A stretch of 19,320 nucleotides of DNA. It comes from a virus. A program made the position numbers and the translations under genes. Under the pieces are notes generated by a model. The model was not told the DNA's origin. It saw only the letters and a list, made by a program, of their open reading frames with translations, and searched no databases. The stretch spans positions 1 to 19,320 of the IMG/VR virus record IMGVR_UViG_3300045988_032762. One strand, written 5' to 3'. Shown here one piece after another: positions 1-19,320 of the stretch (its first letter is position 1; each line of letters starts with the position of its first letter).

Positions 1-22
1 ATTGTTAATCATTTTATTTTTT
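1..22. repeat. Terminal 22-mer, an inverted copy of 184..205 (mirrored at 19299..19320 and 19116..19137)
   Basis: ATTGTTAATCATTTTATTTTTT at 1..22 is the exact reverse complement of AAAAAATAAAATGATTAACAAT at 184..205. That segment is the A-rich leader plus the first four codons of the ITR gene. Confidence 0.9.
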
Positions 23-66
23 TTTGTTCTGTGGCGTCTTTGTCGCTTTGTTGTGTTTCTTGTCTT

Positions 67-95
67 ATTATATTTTTTTCGCGCCAGTTTGTCAA
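67..95 (-). promoter_or_regulatory. Outward-facing consensus sigma-70/sigma-A promoter in the left ITR
   Basis: On the minus strand: TTGACA (90..95), a 17-nt spacer, then TATAAT (67..72). It points towards position 1, so the transcript would run off the end after about 60 nt. Confidence 0.6.
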
Positions 96-126
96 GTTTT
101 TTTATTTCCGGCGTGTCGTTTGTTTT

Positions 127-158
127 CGGGCGTGTCGTGTTTTTGTTTGTGTTATAGT
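127..158 (+). promoter_or_regulatory. ITR promoter P1 (extended -10 TGtTATAGT) for the 66-aa gene; mirror at 19163..19194 (-)
   Basis: TGTTATAGT at 150..158. The CGGGCGTGTCGT motif puts GCGTGT at the -35 position with a 17-nt spacer. Downstream come the RBS CAAGGGAAAGG and the ATG at 194. Confidence 0.55.
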
Positions 159-193
159 GTAGTTATCAGCTTCAAGGGAAAGGAAAAAATAAA

Positions 194-394
194 ATGATTA
201 ACAATAGCATCATCAAGGATTACGTCGAAGATTACATCATGAACAGCGGTCAGCAGCTCGACGATTTTGACCTTGACATGATTGTTGAGAATCTGCATCA
301 TGTGGCTGTGGTCAATAATATGACCATTGAGGATTATAACGATTGTGATTCGTTTCCGAATGATGATTTTATTGAAGCGTTCGAGAATGCGTGA
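194..394 (+). CDS. Hyper-acidic 66-aa protein encoded in the ITR (left copy); function unknown, candidate DNA mimic
   Basis: The ORF has an RBS, its own promoter and its own terminator. It has 11 Asp and 5 Glu against 1 Lys and 0 Arg. An identical copy lies at 18927..19127. Confidence 0.8.
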   Translation: MINNSIIKDYVEDYIMNSGQQLDDFDLDMIVENLHHVAVVNNMTIEDYNDCDSFPNDDFIEAFENA

Positions 395-407
395 TAGGTA
401 ATAGTAG

Positions 408-440
408 AAGCCTCTCGGTTAATAACTGGGAGGCTTTTTT
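408..440 (+). terminator. Intrinsic terminator after the ITR gene; mirror at 18881..18913 (-)
   Basis: AAGCCTC (408..414) pairs with GAGGCTT (430..436) and is followed by TTTT. Confidence 0.7.
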
Positions 441-454
441 ATGTTGTTTTGTTT

Positions 455-487
455 TCGGGCGTGTCGTTGTTTTGTTTATGCTATAAT
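455..487 (+). promoter_or_regulatory. ITR promoter P2 (extended -10 TGcTATAAT); mirror at 18834..18866 (-)
   Basis: TGCTATAAT at 479..487. The CGGGCGTGTCGT motif again puts GCGTGT 17 nt upstream. Next come the RBS CAAGGGAGG and the ATG at 520, where the ITR ends. Confidence 0.6.
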
Positions 488-519
488 GAAAAATATCGAC
501 TACAAGGGAGGTAAATAAA

Positions 520-762
520 ATGATGATTTCAAATATGACTTTCAAGGAAAAGAACGAACTGCTGACCACTTTGTGGGACGACCCGTCCGTGACGCTTCAT
601 GGCGTCAAGGACGGTGTTACGAGTTCGATTGATCGTGATCAGGTTGTTGGTGATTATGTCGTGGCTCTGTATGATTCGTATCAGTTTATATTGCCCTATG
701 AAACAGAAGATGTGCTTCTGTTTTCCGCTGAAGATATGGAGGCGTTCGCTCGGACGTGGTAA
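520..762 (+). CDS. Acidic 80-aa protein of unknown function, specific to the left arm and driven by ITR promoter P2
   Basis: The ORF uses the RBS and ATG supplied by the ITR. It has about 15 acidic and 5 basic residues. A strong hairpin terminator follows. Confidence 0.7.
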   Translation: MMISNMTFKEKNELLTTLWDDPSVTLHGVKDGVTSSIDRDQVVGDYVVALYDSYQFILPYETEDVLLFSAEDMEAFARTW

Positions 763-1875: not shown

Positions 1876-2943
1876 CTATTTTCCTAACAGTTCGCCGATA
1901 ATCAACCCAAAATCGGCCTTGACTTGTGAATCATCGAATCTTATTTTACCAAGTCGATAGCCGGTGGTGAGTCTTCGTATGATATCATCTGATTTTTTGA
2001 CGTACCATGTTTTTTCGTTAACATGATTGGGGTCTAGCGTATAGATGGGGCGAGTGTTGTCTTTGGGAATGCGACGTGAAACATATTGTGAAACGTGTCC
2101 GTCGCGTTCGGACACGCTTACCCATATGCCGAAACGTGCGTAGTCGGTAGTGTCTAGGATGTAGGATAGTTCGCCGTCTGCGGGGATGGGGGCTAGCAGC
2201 GTGTCGGATTCGTCGCGGAATTTGTTACGTATGGCATAGTCGGCATAGTCGCTGTCGTATTGCTCTAAAAATCTGCCGAATTTTGACTTGGCAACTTTGG
2301 CGGAGAATCCGCCGTAATCAGCTAATTCGAGACACACGAACCCTCCGCAATACAACTTGTATTGTTGCTGATTCGCTTGCTGAGCACCAATATCCAGCCG
2401 ATATTTCGCAAAATAAGGATTAGCTTTTTGTACTGCGTTGGACAAAAACAGCACTTTTACTCTGTCCTGCCAACGGTCAACAGTGTTATAAAACTCGCTG
2501 AAACTGTTTACCTCATTGCTCAAAAATCTGAGATTGTCGGGAAATATTTCATCGAAAATAATTAGATGTACTTTTGGATATGCGACTGATTTGAGTCCGC
2601 CCGCTTGTGAGAGCGCTACGAAATAGCAGCATGTGCGCCAATCCTTCTCATCCCATGACGTCTTATGCACCTGCCCCTTCTCTCCGTCCACCCGAAACTC
2701 GTAGGATGGGAAGAATTCTTGAATGTCTTTGAAAAACGTTTCCTTACGGTGCTGTTCCACGTCCGTGCGGCGCAAGTAAATGAACTCGTGACCGTGCTTG
2801 ACATACTCTTTGATGCCGTATCGTTTTGCGGCAAAAGTCTTGCCAAGTCCACGTGCGCCGATCACGAAATTCCATGGCGCGTTACGGGTGAGCAGATTAT
2901 GCAGATCGTAGTAATCATCTTCGGCCAATGTCTGTAACGTCAT
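1876..2943 (-). CDS. DNA encapsidation (packaging) ATPase, phi29 gp16-like
   Basis: Walker A GARGLGKT near the N-terminus and Walker B-like HLIIFDE. Size (355 aa) and sequence pattern match the gp16 family. Confidence 0.85.
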   Translation of the reverse strand: MTLQTLAEDDYYDLHNLLTRNAPWNFVIGARGLGKTFAAKRYGIKEYVKHGHEFIYLRRTDVEQHRKETFFKDIQEFFPSYEFRVDGEKGQVHKTSWDEKDWRTCCYFVALSQAGGLKSVAYPKVHLIIFDEIFPDNLRFLSNEVNSFSEFYNTVDRWQDRVKVLFLSNAVQKANPYFAKYRLDIGAQQANQQQYKLYCGGFVCLELADYGGFSAKVAKSKFGRFLEQYDSDYADYAIRNKFRDESDTLLAPIPADGELSYILDTTDYARFGIWVSVSERDGHVSQYVSRRIPKDNTRPIYTLDPNHVNEKTWYVKKSDDIIRRLTTGYRLGKIRFDDSQVKADFGLIIGELLGK

Positions 2944-2968
2944 GCCTGCTCACCCCCTGAAGAATAAT

Positions 2969-3002
2969 GGGAGCGTAACGTCATGACCACCGTTACGCTC
3001 CC
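2969..3002 (-). terminator. 12-bp GC-rich hairpin upstream of the ATPase gene; possible leaky terminator or attenuator
   Basis: GGGAGCGTAACG (2969..2980) pairs with CGTTACGCTCCC (2991..3002). On the minus strand it is followed by AUUAUUCUU. Confidence 0.4.
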
Positions 3003-3067
3003 CGTGTAGTTACGGTCGGCTCAAGGGAAGTTATCACATGCCGACATTTATTATTATATCACACACT

Positions 3068-4282
3068 TTAGAATGCGGGTGGATTCGATTTACCGTCCCA
3101 CACAGTCAGCAGCGAGTATGCCTGATTGTATCGATTTGTGTATGGATGGAATGGATACGTGCCCAAAATATTGGTTTTGAGCTGCGCAAGATTCGATGCT
3201 TTCGGCACCTTGAGCGCATTGGCTGGTGACTGGTGGTATGCGGTAACCCACAAGATTTGCATTTTATCATCATCGTATTCCTGCGGGTAGCCCACGTAAT
3301 CCTCGGCAAACTGCTTGCGCTGACCCTCATGCGACTCGCTACGTGCCGCCCACATTTGGAATGCCGCTGCTTCCGTCGAGGTCAGCGGTCGGGTAAAATC
3401 ACCCCCCAATTCCATGAGTCCCGCGATCTCAGGAGCCGCACTTTTAAATGCGGCGTAGCCGGTTGGGTCAGCCTCACGCATTTTATTGAGCACTTGCAAG
3501 CGCCGTCCGAAGCTCCACTGCGCAATGCCGATACCTTGGAGATTGGCGGCTTCCACCGCGTCCCACCGTAGATTGGACTCTACCGTGCCGACAACGTAGA
3601 GCGCATACGGATTTTTGGCGTTGGTTGAGCTGGACGGGTGCCCTTGTCCTTGCGAGTCGGACGGTTGCCCCTGCGACGCTTTTTCCGAGAAATTATTGGC
3701 TATTGTTTTGTAAAAAATACGGGTGCGCGCCCCGCTGTTATCCGTCTCATGCAAGTATAGGTTGTCGCCCTGCCAGTGTATCCACGCTCCCCCTCGCGCG
3801 GTGTCGGGGTGCCCTTGGTTGTTGTCTCCGGTGGGATTGTCCACGTCCGGCCTAGACATGGTACGGGGGTGTAAGTAGCCTAACAGTCCGTCGATTGGGT
3901 ACCATTTGAGGGCGCTTGCGTCCGGGTTTTGTGTGATGACGTAGATTCTGCCATCTTTTACCCCATCATTGCCGGCGACTATGGCAACATGCGTATAGGG
4001 GGTGTACGTGCCGTATCCCCATATTGCCACGTCCCCAGCCACCGGCGTGTATCCGCTTGCGGTAATACGCTCGTACACTTGTTCGCACCGTGCGGATACG
4101 GGGTATGAGGTGTACAATCCCCCAGCATAGCCGGTAGGGGTGATACAGTCCTGAATGCTCATGCCGTACATGTCCATGCTGTATTTTGCCCATAAGTCCC
4201 AGCATTGCGCGCCATACGCGCCGTCCATGTCCCAAAAACGGTTTTTGGTCTGGTCAATCCATTGATTAAAAGTAATAGCCAT
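3068..4282 (-). CDS. Tail-associated peptidoglycan hydrolase (gp13 analogue): N-terminal CHAP plus C-terminal lysozyme/transglycosylase-like domain
   Basis: The N-terminus (DMDGAYGAQCWDLW...GDVAIW...HVAIV...QNPD...GYLHPRT) is paralogous to the endolysin CHAP domain. The linker is low-complexity and rich in Gly, Gln and Ser. The C-terminal part contains VESNLRWD...GIGIAQWS. It sits between the fibre and ATPase genes. Confidence 0.75.
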   Translation of the reverse strand: MAITFNQWIDQTKNRFWDMDGAYGAQCWDLWAKYSMDMYGMSIQDCITPTGYAGGLYTSYPVSARCEQVYERITASGYTPVAGDVAIWGYGTYTPYTHVAIVAGNDGVKDGRIYVITQNPDASALKWYPIDGLLGYLHPRTMSRPDVDNPTGDNNQGHPDTARGGAWIHWQGDNLYLHETDNSGARTRIFYKTIANNFSEKASQGQPSDSQGQGHPSSSTNAKNPYALYVVGTVESNLRWDAVEAANLQGIGIAQWSFGRRLQVLNKMREADPTGYAAFKSAAPEIAGLMELGGDFTRPLTSTEAAAFQMWAARSESHEGQRKQFAEDYVGYPQEYDDDKMQILWVTAYHQSPANALKVPKASNLAQLKTNILGTYPFHPYTNRYNQAYSLLTVWDGKSNPPAF

Positions 4283-4315: not shown

Positions 4316-5761
4316 TTAGTGGAAGCAGTTCATGGAGAAATCAAAATCAAGATATCCCGCACTACCGTCGCCTTGCAGCATGTCAATGATGCTGAACGAC
4401 CGGCCGTTAAACTTGATTTTAACGTATCCTTCATTGGACTCTTTGACCCCAAATAGTGGTATCCAATTACCGAACACGTTAGCCTCGTTGACCGTGGCGA
4501 AAACGTCCGTATTCCAAGTGGTTTTGTTGCCACGGAAATAAAAATGGACATCCAGCCCGTCAACGAACACCTTCAGGAAGCCATCTGCAATACCGGACAA
4601 CGTGACGTTGGAATACTCTTCGACTCGTTTCGCCACACCGGTTTTAATGCCTTTTGCGACATACTGCGCATAAATATCCGAGCCTTGAGTATTGGGGTGG
4701 ATATCAGTCATACCGGACTTCCAAAACAGACCCCACGATGGTGCATCGTACACGATCTTAACGACGGCACGACGTCCACCCTCGACCATGGCACCGTATT
4801 TTTGAGCCTCGTTGAAGGTTGGCCACGTATTGTCCCACATCATTGGAATCTGTACGATCTCCGCGTCGGGAAACAATGTTTTCGCAGTGGTAAGCGTGTT
4901 GTAGACAATGTCTCCCGTCACCATTGACGGCGAATCGTTGCGGCCACCGCCGATCACCACGTATCTCACATTGGCCTTGCTTGCACCCAGTTCCGCCGAT
5001 GCTTGCTGGAGTTGCTGTTTAAACGTTTTACCCTTTGTGCCGCCAATCGTATAACCTGAACCGCCGACCGCATAATTGCGGCATTCCAGCCCCAAGAGTC
5101 CTGCCGCCTTGACAATCATACTGTCCGTGGCTGGATTGTCGGTACGAAAACCTTCGAAGTACGAGTCGCCAATGCCCACGAGTAGATTCTGTTCGACCGG
5201 TTTGAGCGCATATTTGCCGTCCGATTCCAACTTGGTGTACGTGTTGTCCCAACGGGCTTTTTTGGCGGTCGCATTTTTTACATTGTCCGCGCCAAGTGCG
5301 GTGAGAATCGCACTGTTTGAGTCAGCTTTACTGTTGGCAGTGTCCGCCTTGCTGATTGCGGACGTGGCGTCCGTTCCGGCCTTATCCCACTTGGTTTTAT
5401 TTGCTGTGGCGTGTGCGGTGGTGTCCGCGCCCAGTGCGGTGAGGATAGCCGTATTGCCATTGGCCTTGCTTACGGCGCTTGCTGCGTCCGCCATTGCTTC
5501 AACGGCGTCCGTGCCGGCCTTATCCCACTTGGCTTTCGCTGCGGTGGCGTTATCCACCGTATTGTCCACAAGCAGTGCCTTCATCACTGCTTCGTCATGG
5601 GTTTCTCGCGCTTCCACGCCTTCGATGCGATTCAGGTGCGTTTCCAAAGTTGTATCAATGGTGTGCATGGAGCCGTTGTAGCCGTCTCGCAGATCGGCGG
5701 GGTCGTTATCGCCATAGAGATTGAGGCCGTAATTATCGGTTTTTGTATATACGGTAGCCAT
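4316..5761 (-). CDS. Tail fibre/appendage (receptor-binding) protein: N-terminal adaptor motif, 46-aa repeats, SGNH/GDSL esterase domain and C-terminal beta-rich domain
   Basis: SGNH blocks GIGDSYFEG, GGSGY, GGGRND and DIHPN. Tandem repeats contain KWDKAGTDA...AILTALGAD. The position corresponds to phi29 gene 12. Confidence 0.75.
   Translation of the reverse strand: MATVYTKTDNYGLNLYGDNDPADLRDGYNGSMHTIDTTLETHLNRIEGVEARETHDEAVMKALLVDNTVDNATAAKAKWDKAGTDAVEAMADAASAVSKANGNTAILTALGADTTAHATANKTKWDKAGTDATSAISKADTANSKADSNSAILTALGADNVKNATAKKARWDNTYTKLESDGKYALKPVEQNLLVGIGDSYFEGFRTDNPATDSMIVKAAGLLGLECRNYAVGGSGYTIGGTKGKTFKQQLQQASAELGASKANVRYVVIGGGRNDSPSMVTGDIVYNTLTTAKTLFPDAEIVQIPMMWDNTWPTFNEAQKYGAMVEGGRRAVVKIVYDAPSWGLFWKSGMTDIHPNTQGSDIYAQYVAKGIKTGVAKRVEEYSNVTLSGIADGFLKVFVDGLDVHFYFRGNKTTWNTDVFATVNEANVFGNWIPLFGVKESNEGYVKIKFNGRSFSIIDMLQGDGSAGYLDFDFSMNCFH
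5246..5554. repeat. Tandem 138-bp (46-aa) repeats, about 2.3 copies, inside the fibre gene
   Basis: CCGGCCTTATCCCACTTGG occurs at 5376..5394 and 5514..5532. GTCCGC... occurs at 5285 and 5423. The period is 138 bp. Confidence 0.85.
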
Positions 5762-13145: not shown

Positions 13146-13177
13146 AAAATAAAATGACCCTCCAATCACGGAGGGTC
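13146..13177 (-). terminator. Intrinsic terminator downstream of the DNA polymerase gene
   Basis: GACCCTCC (13156..13163) pairs with GGAGGGTC (13170..13177). On the minus strand it is followed by AUUUUAUUUU. Confidence 0.75.
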
Positions 13178-13312
13178 TGAATCGTCCTATGTGAGCGCGA
13201 GTCGAAAATCGTAGGGCACTACCGCCACAGTAGCAAATCATGGTTGGCGGCGTTTTCAGCCGAGGCAATCCAACCTATGTCTATCCCAGTCGAAAGTCAA
13301 CGCTCGAAAGAC
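13146..13312 (-). ncRNA. Candidate structured non-coding RNA of about 165 nt (possible packaging RNA, pRNA)
   Basis: The unit is bounded by the extended -10 TGCTATGAT (13319..13327, overlapping the polymerase stop codon) and the terminator at 13146..13177. It has no ORF with an RBS. It contains GC-rich complementary segments: GGTTGG/CCAACC, CCGCCA/TGGCGG and GAAAACG/CGaTTTTC. Confidence 0.3.
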
Positions 13313-13319
13313 AAACATA

Positions 13320-14771
13320 TCATAGCATAACCAATGTACCGTAATCGTCCATGACTTGCACGCCATGCCGGAATTGCTCATACGGGATAGGTTGGGAGAA
13401 CATGCTTCCAGCCATGCAAACGTCAACTTCACCGTCATCCCTCCATCCTTGATATCGGTTCATGCCCAATATCGTGAGCTTTTCGTACTGTGCGGCGATT
13501 TTCCATTTGCCTAGCTCGGTAGGGTGGATTTCGCATGACTTCACCGGCTCCCAGCCTGACAATATGCACCCGTCCGTATTGGCATAAAGCAGTCGATCAG
13601 AGTTGGCATGGCAGACGCCCATAAGCTTACGACGCGCGTAGGCGTTGACCCATACGGGCACGGGCAGATAGTCGGTTTTCAGATTCGATTCCCCTCTCTG
13701 TGCGATATCCCAGTTCAAGGTGATACCGTCTTTTGACATGGGAAGCATGACGGCCCCTTTGGGCAGACTTGCCATTTTGCCTACGAGCGCGTTCATGATC
13801 AGTTTCGCCATTTGCCGTTTCTCGCCTGTCTCGCGTTGTTTCAGTTCCCCCCATTCGTCGATGAACGAGCGGAAAAACCCCTTGCTTTTCCGGAACCGCC
13901 ACCCCCGCACATACTTGTAAACGCTCACTTCGTAATTGTCATATAAAAGTTGCTGGTCAATATCGGTGAGCACTCTTGTAATATATCCCCTAGTGCTGGT
14001 AAGTCGATTGAGTTCATACACGCTACGATTGTCTAATAGAAAGGGGTATCCGTTTGGTTTGAGTTCGGCGCGGAACGTGAGTTCGTCGCAATGCAATGGC
14101 ATGTCATCATCCTGCTCATACTTGCCGTCATATGATTCAGGTAGCCCCCATGGGAGCCATTCATCCCGCAATATGCTCGGATACATGCTATTGCAGTCAA
14201 CGTCGATGGCCTTACCGTATGCCCCCTCTCTTGCAACCATAAATCCGCCGATATAGGCGTCATGCAGTGACTTTTTATCTTCGGGCTGCAATTGTGGGAA
14301 TTTGTCGTAAAGCCACTTCCACTCGCCGGATGCGAACGCTTCCATGCTCGCTCCACCGGCTGTGATCTTGCACAAGCCGCGCCGATCGTACTCGCGCAAA
14401 ATGTTGAGCAGTTGAGTATCGGTCATGGTGAGCTTGCAGTTTTCCCGCAAAAGATTCGAAATATCGAAAAACCGCGCGGAATTTTCGCGGTCGATACGCA
14501 CGGTAAAACTAAAAAATTTGCCCTTTTTGGACACTATCGCGTCCCAGCTCAGGTTGGCGTTATGCTCATTATGGGGGAGAGAGTGCACGACATGTGCGAT
14601 AAACGGGTCTAAAATATCGGGGTTGCTCACGTAGACGGTGAGTCTGCCGCCCGTCATGATGGACGCCAAAAGACGATTAGGCGCGGCAACGTCACGTAAT
14701 ACGGTGCCGTCCGTAAAACGGATAACGTTATCCATACACCATAATCCAACTCTATTATCACTCACCACCAT
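13320..14771 (-). CDS. Protein-primed family-B DNA polymerase (phi29 gp2-like), compact at 483 aa
   Basis: Long collinear similarity to phi29 DNA polymerase. Examples: ITAGGASMEAF vs MTAGSDSLKGF; DVDCNSMYP vs DVNSLYP; KLIMNALVGK vs KLMLNSLYGK; LYANTDG vs IYCDTDS; LGKWK vs LGYWA. Confidence 0.92.
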   Translation of the reverse strand: MVVSDNRVGLWCMDNVIRFTDGTVLRDVAAPNRLLASIMTGGRLTVYVSNPDILDPFIAHVVHSLPHNEHNANLSWDAIVSKKGKFFSFTVRIDRENSARFFDISNLLRENCKLTMTDTQLLNILREYDRRGLCKITAGGASMEAFASGEWKWLYDKFPQLQPEDKKSLHDAYIGGFMVAREGAYGKAIDVDCNSMYPSILRDEWLPWGLPESYDGKYEQDDDMPLHCDELTFRAELKPNGYPFLLDNRSVYELNRLTSTRGYITRVLTDIDQQLLYDNYEVSVYKYVRGWRFRKSKGFFRSFIDEWGELKQRETGEKRQMAKLIMNALVGKMASLPKGAVMLPMSKDGITLNWDIAQRGESNLKTDYLPVPVWVNAYARRKLMGVCHANSDRLLYANTDGCILSGWEPVKSCEIHPTELGKWKIAAQYEKLTILGMNRYQGWRDDGEVDVCMAGSMFSQPIPYEQFRHGVQVMDDYGTLVML

Positions 14772-14789: not shown

Positions 14790-15860
14790 TTATTGACCGC
14801 TACTTTCCAACGCGCCCGCTTCCGCTATCCACCGGTCGAACTGCCTTCGTGAACGCTGATAGCCCTCACTGTTGCCTCGGAAAACTGAGGCGAAACCGTG
14901 CCGAACGGGGTCATACACCGTCCAGTCGAACACAATACGGGGGGCGTCTGTCTGTTCGATAAACGCTCTCTTTTGCGCTGCGGATAGGCTGCGGAATCGT
15001 TTCAATCGTTTCGAACCTAGTGAGGTGGCCAAGATTTTTTCAAAAACCTCATAACGCCGGCGACTCATGTAGGACGGCCACTCGTGCTCACCGTACAGGT
15101 CTGTACTCTTTTTGCCCGTCCCCTGTCTTTTGGACGTTTTGCGTTTCTGTTCGGTGCGCAATCCCAAGATTTCGGCTGCGTCATGCATCTGCTCAAGCAG
15201 TTCCTTACGGTGACCGCTCTCCAATTGCGATCTTACAAAAGCTTCGTCACTCAGGACGTTTGCCATTTGCAGAAAATCAGTGAGTTTCGATGGGATGATC
15301 TGAGTGCGTCCGAAACCCTCGCCGGTAGTTCCGGTGATTTCGGCCATACGCTGATCGTACACGCTACGCTGTGGCATGGCCTGTTCGCGGTTCCATTCGT
15401 TGATTTTTCGCCGTGCCGCGTTGATTTTACGCTGCTGCTGCCGTAACAGTTTGCGCCGTTTCGCGACGGGTTCCGCCTGAATCTGCGCGTCCGATATGGG
15501 CGTGCGTTGGGCAAACATAATGTCTTTTTTCGTCGGCTTTTCCACGGCGGTGGCATGATATGTGGTTGCTTTCGCTTCCGCTATGGCCTGTTTCTTCTGC
15601 CGTTCCCATTCTTTGCCCAATGTTTTCGCGATATTGACCAATTGCTTGTCGGCGGTTTTGGCGAGATTCGAGTGAGAATACGAGCCGAGTTTGCTAATGT
15701 TACGGGCGGCGCGTGCTTCCGCTGCCTGTCTTGCCTTGACGTGCTTGCGTGCCTTGCTGTCCGCCTTGATGGCTACCGTGCCGATGCCGGTATTGTGGGC
15801 GCGAGTGGTGTAGTGCTGACTTGCGACTGCTCGGGGTGATTTTCTTTGCTTGCGTGACAT
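14790..15860 (-). CDS. Candidate terminal (priming) protein
   Basis: It lies immediately upstream of the polymerase gene, as phi29 gene 3 does. It is 356 aa and strongly basic (rich in K, R, Q and A). I could see no direct similarity to phi29 TP; the call is positional. Confidence 0.5.
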   Translation of the reverse strand: MSRKQRKSPRAVASQHYTTRAHNTGIGTVAIKADSKARKHVKARQAAEARAARNISKLGSYSHSNLAKTADKQLVNIAKTLGKEWERQKKQAIAEAKATTYHATAVEKPTKKDIMFAQRTPISDAQIQAEPVAKRRKLLRQQQRKINAARRKINEWNREQAMPQRSVYDQRMAEITGTTGEGFGRTQIIPSKLTDFLQMANVLSDEAFVRSQLESGHRKELLEQMHDAAEILGLRTEQKRKTSKRQGTGKKSTDLYGEHEWPSYMSRRRYEVFEKILATSLGSKRLKRFRSLSAAQKRAFIEQTDAPRIVFDWTVYDPVRHGFASVFRGNSEGYQRSRRQFDRWIAEAGALESSGQ

Positions 15861-16443: not shown

Positions 16444-16755
16444 CATGCCATCATTATTTTCAATTTCGGCGTGTCGTTTTGTATGTTCTTCGGGGGTCCA
16501 TTCTTGCGGCTCACCGAAAGTCGCATACTTGTAAAAAGTTTCCTCATTCATGGAGACTTTTTGCGAAAAAATATTGATGGAGCGTGGAATGAAGTTAGGA
16601 AACAGTTTCTTCGCACGAATCGAATACGCGCGCTCGTCCTTAAGTCGCCCGTCGATAACATGCTCGGCTTCCATAAAATCGCCGTCAACAAGCTCCATAC
16701 CCTTGAGCACGGCATACACGCGCGTTCGAAAAATATCGGTTTTGGTTCTAGCCAA
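16441..16755 (-). CDS. Candidate dsDNA-binding, histone-like protein (phi29 p6 analogue), TTG start
   Basis: 104 aa, the length I recall for p6. It has a basic N-terminus, VDGD (p6 has VDGE) and an acidic C-terminal tail. It lies directly upstream of the SSB gene, as gene 6 precedes gene 5 in phi29. A strong GGGGAGGT RBS precedes the TTG. Confidence 0.4.
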   Translation of the reverse strand: MARTKTDIFRTRVYAVLKGMELVDGDFMEAEHVIDGRLKDERAYSIRAKKLFPNFIPRSINIFSQKVSMNEETFYKYATFGEPQEWTPEEHTKRHAEIENNDGM

Positions 16756-18558: not shown

Positions 18559-18801
18559 TCAGTGAATCAAGGCGTCGGATACCGCTTCCGCGATAGTATC
18601 CCCAGTTCCCAAGACAACGGCAGGGCTGCAATAATCAGCGTAAACGGCATAAAACACATCAACCGCGTCCACCTTACATCCATCTTCGGTAGTGCGATAG
18701 TATGGCATCTCAACCCTCTTGACGCAAGCGCGCGCCATCAATTCCCGCACACTCTCGATACTAACGACAGCTTCCTTTGCGATTTGCTTATAATTTTCCA
18801 T
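18559..18801 (-). CDS. 80-aa first gene of the right-arm early operon; its promoter, RBS and ATG come from the ITR
   Basis: The ATG at 18801..18799 is the last triplet of the right ITR. C-terminal GTGDTIAEAVSDAL loosely resembles small alpha/beta HicB-like folds. Confidence 0.7.
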   Translation of the reverse strand: MENYKQIAKEAVVSIESVRELMARACVKRVEMPYYRTTEDGCKVDAVDVFYAVYADYCSPAVVLGTGDTIAEAVSDALIH

Positions 18802-18926
18802 TTTATTTACCTCCCTTGTAGTCGATATTTTTCATTATAGCATAAACAAAACAACGACACGCCCGAAAACAAAACAACATAAAAAAGCCTCCCAGTTATT
18901 AACCGAGAGGCTTCTACTATTACCTA

Positions 18927-19127
18927 TCACGCATTCTCGAACGCTTCAATAAAATCATCATTCGGAAACGAATCACAATCGTTATAATCCTCAATGGTCA
19001 TATTATTGACCACAGCCACATGATGCAGATTCTCAACAATCATGTCAAGGTCAAAATCGTCGAGCTGCTGACCGCTGTTCATGATGTAATCTTCGACGTA
19101 ATCCTTGATGATGCTATTGTTAATCAT
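18927..19127 (-). CDS. Hyper-acidic 66-aa ITR protein (right copy, identical to 194..394)
   Basis: The translation in the ORF track is identical, and it lies inside the perfect ITR. Confidence 0.8.
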   Translation of the reverse strand: MINNSIIKDYVEDYIMNSGQQLDDFDLDMIVENLHHVAVVNNMTIEDYNDCDSFPNDDFIEAFENA

Positions 19128-19225
19128 TTTATTTTTTCCTTTCCCTTGAAGCTGATAACTACACTATAACACAAACAAAAACACGACACGCCCGAAAACA
19201 AACGACACGCCGGAAATAAAAAAAC

Positions 19226-19254
19226 TTGACAAACTGGCGCGAAAAAAATATAAT
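19226..19254 (+). promoter_or_regulatory. Outward-facing consensus promoter in the right ITR (mirror of 67..95)
   Basis: TTGACA at 19226..19231, a 17-nt spacer, TATAAT at 19249..19254. It points towards the right terminus. Confidence 0.6.
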
Positions 19255-19320
19255 AAGACAAGAAACACAACAAAGCGACAAAGACGCCACAGAACAAAAA
19301 AAAATAAAATGATTAACAAT

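Follow-up and report, generated by a model that had tools for sequence, protein, structure and literature searches.

A long terminal inverted repeat that ends at a shared start codon in a phi29-like Bifidobacterium phage, and its probable inward growth by exchange between genome ends

The window studied here, by which we mean the whole stretch of 19,320 nucleotides of DNA that was analysed, represents, judged by its gene content, the whole genome of a phi29-like, protein-primed Bifidobacterium podophage. Its nearest deposited genome is that of the Bifidobacterium phage BP1 (85.6% identity over 79%), with BD811P1-3 next, and almost all of its genes are carried by the minus strand between positions 813 and 18801. 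A family-B protein-primed DNA polymerase is encoded at 13320-14771 (minus strand; PF03175, E = 2.4e-26; phrog_1907), and directly upstream of its gene, in the same placement as in Av-1, lies a 356-aa ORF (14790-15860, minus strand) for which no family match was obtained. Pfam and PHROGs also identified a holin/endolysin pair and a phi29-type packaging and morphogenesis set (Gp16 ATPase, connector, capsid, tail knob and lower collar), the matches for this set and for a phi29-type SSB being PF05894, PF05352, PF25622, PF20934, phrog_3225 and PF17427. An earlier reading of the bare sequence, hereafter the first-pass annotation, had taken this DNA for a phi29-type phage with a terminal repeat, which is borne out both by this gene set and by the relationship to BP1.

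The two ends of the window are 100% complementary, with positions 1-522 on the left mirrored by an identical right arm at 18799-19320 (minus strand). The left arm proper spans 14-522 (plus strand), which is the portion homologous to the repeats of relatives; this homology covers at least 509 of the 522 nt, and a perfect repeat of this length cannot have arisen by chance. The last base shared by the arms is the G of an ATG at 520-522, the next base, 523, being A in the left copy and G in the right, so that identity stops with the start codon itself and not, as had been claimed, one base after it. Beyond this ATG the left copy runs on as ATGATTTCA... into p80L, an acidic 80-aa gene (520-762, plus strand) which is the first gene inside the left boundary, while the right copy runs on as GAAAATTAT... 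into p80E (MENYKQ..., 80 aa; 18559-18801, minus strand), the first gene of the leftward early operon, whose ATG comes from the right arm; the two flanks just inside the 522|523 junction read ATGATTTCAAAT and GAAAATTATAAG. That a single promoter, RBS and ATG would serve p80L at one end and the early operon at the other was already proposed in the first-pass annotation and is supported in silico. We considered p80L and p80E as paralogs and rejected this, the two 80-aa products being without similarity; p80E gives a weak sigma-70 region 4-like match (E = 0.03).

Read inwards from its outer end, the repeat contains an outward promoter, a promoter P1, a 66-aa gene, a terminator, a second promoter P2, an RBS and the ATG, all of which are found in the order first described, the promoters as predictions. 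The predicted outward promoter (67-95, minus strand) has a -35 TTGACA at 95->90 and a -10 TATAAT at 72->67 and was a 12/12 match to the sigma-70 consensus TTGACA-17-TATAAT in a consensus scan. Across 28 contigs, TTGACA was present in 37/44 matches and TATAAT in 35/44, with the first half of the spacer occurring in at least 17 forms; hexamers that are kept while the spacer varies are, for this predicted promoter, the signature of a functional one. P1 consists of a predicted extended -10, TGTTATAGT (150-158, plus strand), followed by an RBS, AAGGGAAAGG, at 174-183, and the predicted P2 module (479-522, plus strand) of an extended -10, TGCTATAAT, at 479-487, an RBS, AAGGGAGG, at 504-511 and the ATG at 520-522. 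The two modules are 88% identical over 41 nt, neither has a recognisable -35 or was detected by the consensus scan, and the inner bases of the extended -10 vary in relatives with TGnTAnnnT being kept. From these sequence motifs we infer that P1, P2 and the outward promoter would all be active.

A GC-rich box, TTYSGGCGTGTCG, occurs seven times in the window against 0.2 occurrences expected. Two copies lie at 106-118 and 125-137 (plus strand), the second ending 15 nt before the -10 of P1, and a third at 454-466 (plus strand) ends 15 nt before the -10 of P2, making the box a candidate regulator site placed over the -35 position. A fourth copy at 16464-16476 (plus strand) was considered as part of another promoter of the P1/P2 type and rejected, there being no -10 at the 15-nt spacing. 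The consensus scan also found an intrinsic terminator 3' of the 66-aa gene (406-438, plus strand), which is identical in L091, and another at 768-796, bidirectional, which separates p80L from the converging endolysin gene; such bidirectional terminators are a shared module in relatives.

The gene enclosed by the repeat, p66 (194-394, plus strand, with a copy in both arms), codes for an acidic, helical protein of 66 aa (pI 4.05; 16 D/E vs 1 K/R). Full-length 66-aa homologs exist in seven related loci, the mean dN/dS across these loci and the window (eight sequences) is about 0.2, a large protein collection holds 194 homologs, and 27 columns are invariant in an alignment of 41 sequences; by these sequence comparisons p66 is a real gene. 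Its AlphaFold2 model consists of four helices (pLDDT 75). No Pfam or PHROG family was found for the protein and no Foldseek match in the PDB with E < 5 for its fold, and to see in it a DNA mimic or an anti-defence protein would be a guess from charge alone. In every case p66 is the first gene after the terminal module, but the end at which it is found varies: it is present at the lysis end only in three genomes (L024, L046, L065), at the early end only in one (L068), and at both ends in L034, L016, L062 and the window, with its 3' end lying in both arms in L019, L016 and L062. The fact that different genomes have p66 on the left only, on the right only or on both sides indicates that cassettes move between the ends.

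How general the inner boundary is can be seen from related genomes, a comparison of repeat length and boundary which the first-pass annotation had proposed. A tail-protein scan returned 80 related genomes, and the set compared comprised 43 genomes, namely the 41 of these 80 with terminal inverted repeats of at least 50 nt, BD811P2 and the window. In 25/43 of these phylogenetically non-independent genomes, the last exactly identical base lies no more than 12 nt from an ATG at either end, and the genes that follow differ between the two ends. By class, the boundary falls within 4 nt of the ATG in 19/43, with one further genome showing the same after a single mismatch; in the A-run between RBS and ATG in 9/43, where it results from a length difference of 1-2 nt; inside the promoter in 6/43, mostly just after the GC box (L059, L029, L004); in or next to the p66 terminator in 4/43; and in coding or other sequence in the remaining 4/43. 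Boundaries at terminators were seen in L019, L016 and L062 and just past the p66 stop codon in L034, and repeats ending within coding sequence in L015, L026, L032 and L071. The flanking gene pairs are diverse, with at least five families on one side and about eight on the other. Judged from these genomes, the coincidence of the boundary with a start codon is not random and holds across the family. Many of the relatives' repeats are exactly 77, 99, 119 or 141 nt long, which we interpret as assembler k-mer sizes and hence as truncated repeats. Those that were apparently fully assembled measure 181-439 nt, among them a 401-nt repeat assembled with p66 at both ends (L034), and the 522 nt of the window are the longest of the 43.

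A further aspect of these repeats is that the two ends of a genome resemble one another more than they resemble the ends of other genomes. In the 48 nt that precede the ATG, the 29 genomes whose repeat reaches the promoter-RBS module show 98.5% identity between the ends of one genome vs 85.2% between genomes, and 24 distinct versions of this stretch occur; in the 48 nt that follow the ATG, identity falls to a background level of 54%. Since identity within genomes so exceeds that between them, the ends are homogenised and not merely conserved. Concerted evolution of the two ends, with a step at the ATG, is thus shown in these alignments.

The best explanation, and in our view the probable one, is that the window carries the outer-truncated inverted terminal repeat of a phi29-like podophage which grew inward by recombination or template switching between the ends at shared modules. 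The basic state is seen in BP1 and L036, where the left repeat has P1 leading into p80L and the right end has P1 leading into a small gene and a terminator, followed by P2 and the early operon. In L019, the p66 3' end and the terminator lie in both arms and are followed by a P1-like promoter before p80L and by P2 before MENYKQ. The closest relative of the left end, L091 (p66 97% identical), has the terminator and the GC box of the window but a P1-type promoter before p80L. In 17 relatives the P2-type module is located at the end with the early operon, and the window alone has one at the opposite end as well; this distribution shows, as far as sequence comparison goes, P2 to be native to the right (early-operon) end and to have been copied to the left.

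In a first step, the p66 cassette would have come to occupy both arms, a state common to L019, L016, L062 and L034. In a second, the P2 module of the right end would have overwritten the P1-type promoter before p80L, in a tract of about 50 nt that begins directly behind the box and reaches to the ATG. This could have been achieved by one crossover between the ends of two molecules, or by one template switch of the strand-displacing polymerase, at ...ATAAAATG; recombination or template switching is what we infer as the cause, and sequence alone cannot separate the two. The event would resolve at the end of homology (...ATAAAATG) because the coding sequences beyond it are unrelated, and the terminator and GC-box boundaries of other genomes fit the same logic because both are other sequences shared by the two ends. 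The homology at the inferred crossover is short, about 10-20 nt, and the positions at which boundaries are observed could in part reflect selection for intact promoter-gene fusions. Exact-protein look-ups place the exact genome on record in one sample only, those for the exact p80L, polymerase and capsid products having given no record, and the second step, the overwriting of the left promoter by P2, therefore rests on one short-read assembly; a search of the viral and JGI metagenome contig collections gave no second instance of the junction of P2 with p80L.

The first-pass annotation had instead suggested that panhandle or gene-conversion repair keeps the repeat homogeneous up to a functional limit. 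The panhandle version of this, in which the ends of the displaced strand pair, repair copies one arm to the other and copying stops where the genes must differ, strikes us as unlikely. Panhandle and homology-restoring models for repair between ends have been proposed for the protein-primed adenovirus and PRD1 (PMC11886824); the repeats of Cp-1 and Av-1 are perfect in their outer part and have mismatches only in the inner part; and the two ends of the genomes compared here do evolve in concert, which also fits gene conversion. A panhandle, however, has its 3' end at the outer tip and would therefore rebuild lost outer sequence but could not copy unique sequence inward, the boundaries found in terminators and just after the GC box are edges of homology and not functional limits, and some repeats end inside coding sequence (the four genomes named above). 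The concerted evolution of the ends thus agrees with the earlier suggestion, and a functional limit is not supported. The boundary is more aptly seen as the point at which the homology of a promoter/RBS module common to both ends runs out; other relatives stop at terminators and at the upstream GC box. Like the window, adenovirus and PRD1 have linear, protein-primed genomes in which the two ends stay similar, but their repeats amount to about 100 bp of gene-free origin, and a panhandle rebuilds outer sequence whereas the repeat of the window would have moved inward.

Inward growth at shared modules may be part of a broader pattern, which we put forward tentatively and consider doubtful as a general rule: the terminal repeats of this clade could be self-homogenising expression platforms, in which portable modules recombine or switch template and the repeat slides inward cassette by cassette. 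If this were true, the adjoining small immediate-early gene (here p66) would be duplicated, present in double dose and expressed no matter which end enters the cell, the process would have left the start-codon boundary as its footprint, and p66 might possibly be an anti-defence protein.

The outer end of the repeat raises a separate question. Positions 1-22 of the window are the exact reverse complement of 184-205, that is, of the RBS and the start of p66, and a T-rich microhomology of 9 nt (14-22, TTATTTTTT) is shared at the fold-back junction, leaving at 1-13 an apparently foreign segment which is an inverted copy of 193-205 and in whose place relatives have a terminal sequence of their own. 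More than 12 relatives have a conserved terminal sequence, ...GGGAGGGGTGTGGGTTTGTGTGAAGATTTTCCCTTGTGGTTTTTTTTATTTGTGTATTATTTTTTTTTGTTCTGTG, and the alignment of the window begins only at about position 14 (TTATTTTTTTTTGTTCTGTGG); a conserved terminal stretch of the relatives, GGGAGGGGTGTGGGTTTGTGTGAAGATTTTCCCTTGTGG..., is absent from it. From the outward -10 to the contig end there are 102-119 nt in full-length relatives vs 66 nt in the window. In the GenBank record of BP1, the adapter end (which we take to be an Illumina adapter) of 291 nt of junk abuts GTGGGAGGTGCATGG (GTGGGAGG...), implying a physical end at that point. Positions 1-13 are probably a fold-back chimera joined through the 9-nt microhomology, about 55 nt of the true terminus are probably missing from the window, and the real repeat would probably be near 565 bp. 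The earlier statement that the repeat starts at base 1 thus reflects contig assembly, since relatives align only from about 14. As regards a terminal base reiteration for sliding-back, the inverted repeat is present and the true terminal bases are missing from the contig. Outward of position 14, the true end would be expected to run on into ...TTTGTGTATTA and a GGGAGG-type terminus.

One could instead take the 22-nt terminal inverted copy for real biology, such as a snap-back or hairpin end or a rearranged origin, with base 1 as the true terminus. An exact match of 22 nt is far beyond chance, the inverted copy is present both in the 19,320-bp contig and in a 522-bp scaffold held at ENA, and template switching in vivo is possible for strand-displacing polymerases. 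Nevertheless, we regard this as quite unlikely: both assemblies derive from one sample; BP1, L004 and more than 12 others with this end type keep the conserved terminus that the window lacks; the junction lies in a T-rich microhomology of 9 nt, as is common for chimeric reads; and the adapter in BP1 directly abuts GTGGGAGG..., a physical end there.

The 522-bp scaffold leads us to a caveat about the repeat as a whole. It was found via an exact look-up of the p66 protein, belongs to the ENA assembly ERZ28598296 (sample SAMEA3951769, study code LIJI17-1) and is base-for-base identical to window positions 1-522. The same assembly holds an 18,276-bp scaffold whose ends match window positions 523 and 18798 and which carries the packaging ATPase, the endolysin and an early gene. 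The lengths add up exactly (522+18276+522 = 19320, the window length), and JGI also records a 19,320-bp version. Evidently, the short-read assembler merged both copies of the repeat into one sequence. Since block and core are separate scaffolds, the copies were not independently assembled and the 100% identity of the arms does not count as a separate measurement, which weakens the claim of perfect identity and not the existence of the repeat. The "522-bp perfect ITR" of the first-pass annotation is in this sense partly right: the arms are 100% complementary at the coordinates given above, but their identity was not independently measured and the outer end is incomplete. Many other p66 contigs of 500-700 bp exist, and two of them (L092, L093) are consistent with stand-alone repeat scaffolds, the 50-72 nt past the conserved terminus in these two having no match among the other sequences compared. 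Two more were considered as such scaffolds and rejected, as both hold a partial second gene; of these, L095 is a fragment of very low coverage and L096 a short contig made by MEGAHIT (k127).

A more radical view of the same scaffolds would be that the 522-bp block comes from one end only, or from a mixture of strains, and was pasted to both ends. The separate block and core with their exactly summing lengths, the restriction of the genome to a single sample and the already artefactual outer 13 nt are what one would then expect. Even so, we find this explanation highly improbable. The core scaffold breaks off precisely at the module boundary on either side, and p80E is left without ATG or RBS unless the block is added; homologs of p80L in relatives have the extra ATG and the upstream module; more than 40 relatives, the isolates BP1 and BadAztec1 included, have terminal repeats of this design; L034 has p66 at both ends, and L019, L016 and L062 have its 3' end at both ends; and, since the 522-nt scaffold is unbranched and borders the core at both ends, there would be no divergence within the block. 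The existence of the repeat is well supported despite the collapsed copies. That there is no homogenisation at all, and that selection holds every early promoter and RBS to one consensus, is scarcely credible and already contradicted, for although modules are 85% alike across genomes and P1 and P2 agree as closely as stated above, the 24 versions in 29 genomes coexist with near-identity within each genome, and identity in the window spans a whole gene including its synonymous sites.

Some of these features have precedents. The length of the repeat is 6 bp in phi29 (PMC4974454) and 236 bp in the Streptococcus phage Cp-1, so the lengths given in the first-pass annotation were right. Cp-1 is like the window in being phi29-like and protein-primed and in having a long repeat; an outward -35/-10 is annotated inside it, the counterpart of the one predicted in the window. 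Its 236 perfect nt are followed by imperfect repetition up to 352 nt (116 nt more, with 8 mismatches), which carries the early promoters and ends at their mapped start sites, these being PE1 and PE2 (PE1 at 351) at one end and PE4 at 18993, i.e. 351 nt from the right end, serving different genes. In Cp-1, however, the repeat goes no further than the transcription start and so leaves out the RBS, it holds neither gene nor terminator and its inner part is imperfect, whereas that of the window runs through a whole gene, a terminator, a second promoter, an RBS and a start codon. Closer parallels are found in Bifidobacterium phages. BP1, BD811P2, BadAztec1 and about 40 uncultivated genomes share with the window an origin end, a predicted outward promoter, a promoter-RBS module and a boundary at an ATG that opens two different genes; BadAztec1 belongs to a second genus (polymerase 33% identical), and its 259-nt perfect repeat ends ...GGAAATGA, ...ATGA, with different genes beyond. 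Unlike the window, most Bifidobacterium phi29-like relatives have one module and no gene in the repeat, which measures about 230-440 nt in those with full assembly. The presence of p66 in the repeat is common to the window and L034, L019, L016 and L062, and P2 at both ends is a feature of the window alone.

Whole genes in two copies are also held by the terminal inverted repeats of poxviruses and of Streptomyces linear replicons, whose boundary shifts by recombination between the ends. These repeats measure kilobases to hundreds of kilobases and belong to replicons with a different replication chemistry (e.g., the hairpin ends of poxviruses), and we know of no boundaries at start codons among them. 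The window, for its part, has a complete p66 in both arms, and the position of the boundary differs among close relatives within the 43 genomes. The terminal repeats of phage T5 hold its pre-early genes, and in T5, as would be the case in the window, the genes that enter and are expressed first sit in a terminal repeat; those of T5, however, are direct repeats of about 10 kb, and entry begins at one end only. Long promoter-bearing repeats (Cp-1) and gene-bearing repeats with shifting borders (poxviruses, Streptomyces replicons) are thus already known. In the searchable literature we found no description of a start-codon boundary as a clade-wide rule, of the modular route by which a repeat may grow, or of a phi29-like phage repeat with a complete gene, a terminator and a second promoter, and in the accessible literature none of the terminal repeats of Bifidobacterium phi29-like phages.

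The terminal repeats of protein-primed phages are commonly regarded as nothing more than origins of replication. Those of this clade would also carry shared expression signals and can take in whole genes, with their inner edge at a start codon in most of the 43 genomes and in a second genus of Bifidobacterium phages. This offers a testable picture of how the ends of linear genomes stay alike and of how small early genes could move and be duplicated between them, and the existence of cultured members (BP1, BD811P1-3) makes it experimentally tractable. It also carries a warning, as short-read assemblies collapse or trim such repeats, lose the true termini and may add fold-back junk; "perfect" repeats and exact virus ends in catalogues are therefore not to be trusted at face value.

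A further observation concerns a possible packaging RNA (pRNA). Neither a pRNA nor another credible RNA family emerged when the full length of the window was scanned against Rfam at E <= 1. The outward promoter was considered as a source of such an RNA and rejected, its run-off transcript of about 104 nt (in the full-length relative L041) being CA-rich and unstructured (z = -0.64). A conserved structured element at 13319->13153, with 18 compensatory pairs, is a candidate for the pRNA.

The GC-rich box TTYSGGCGTGTCG occurs seven times in the window, where 0.2 occurrences would be expected, and sequence matching places it on the plus strand at 106-118, 125-137, 454-466 and 16464-16476 and, as mirror copies on the minus strand, at 18855-18867, 19184-19196 and 19203-19215. 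The box ends exactly 15 nt upstream of the -10 of both P1 and P2, the predicted inward extended -10 promoters of the inverted terminal repeat (-10 regions at 150-158 and 479-487), and thus covers the -35 position in each case. We propose that it may be the operator of a phage regulator. A single isolated copy lies within an early gene of 104 aa that is encoded on the other strand. Closer to the ends, each arm of the repeat carries a perfect consensus promoter that faces the terminus (67-95 on the minus strand; mirror at 19226-19254 on the plus strand), and in 28 related contigs its hexamers are kept while its spacers vary. An annotated counterpart is found in the record of the Streptococcus phage Cp-1, and the run-off RNA predicted from this promoter would be about 100 nt long, CA-rich and without structure.

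Among the related catalogue genomes (L004-L083), many end in inverted repeats whose length is exactly 77, 99, 119 or 141 nt. We take these values to be assembler k-mer lengths, so that the lengths recorded for these repeats are artefacts of truncation. The deposited ends of the closest phage, BP1 (L001, PQ571273.1), are also affected: positions 1-291 at the start of the record are spurious, holding a degraded version of 663-890 and then, at 259-291, an Illumina P5/TruSeq adapter, and about 88 nt of the repeat are missing from the right end. In reality the BP1 repeat probably spans 292-527 and measures 236 nt. L092 and L093, two contigs from other samples that consist of the repeat by itself, have 50-72 nt of extra sequence (L092 1-72, L093 1-50) outside the conserved GGGAGG-type terminus. 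This extra sequence matched none of the other sequences of the analysis; it could be another chimera, or the end may truly be longer.

The DNA polymerase (13320-14771, minus strand) has 483 aa, whereas that of Cp-1 has 568 aa (CDS 2040-3746), and only positions 177-447 of the 468 in profile PF03175 are matched; possibly the exonuclease region at its N terminus has shrunk or diverged. The 483-aa product is found again in the related contig L094, and the full protein shares 76-88% identity with MT836241 and the Bifidobacterium phages BD811P1-3. Directly upstream, a 356-aa ORF (14790-15860, minus strand) has no family match; judged by its position, as with the terminal protein gene of Av-1, it likely encodes the terminal protein.

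Directly 3' of the polymerase stop codon lies a conserved structured non-coding element (13153-13319, minus strand), in which about 140 nt of nested helices are followed by an intrinsic terminator. It recurs in 82 loci at 72-97% identity, and compensatory changes support 18 of its 41 pairs (RNAalifold, 24 relatives); Rfam returned no match. The element is a candidate packaging RNA, albeit unusually positioned: it does not lie at a genome end but has the polymerase on one side and the late genes on the other.

Finally, a 481-aa gene for a putative tail fibre or receptor-binding protein (4316-5761, minus strand) contains three imperfect direct copies at 138-nt spacing (5278-5550), which corresponds to a 46-aa repeat in the protein; BP1 and the window differ in this region.
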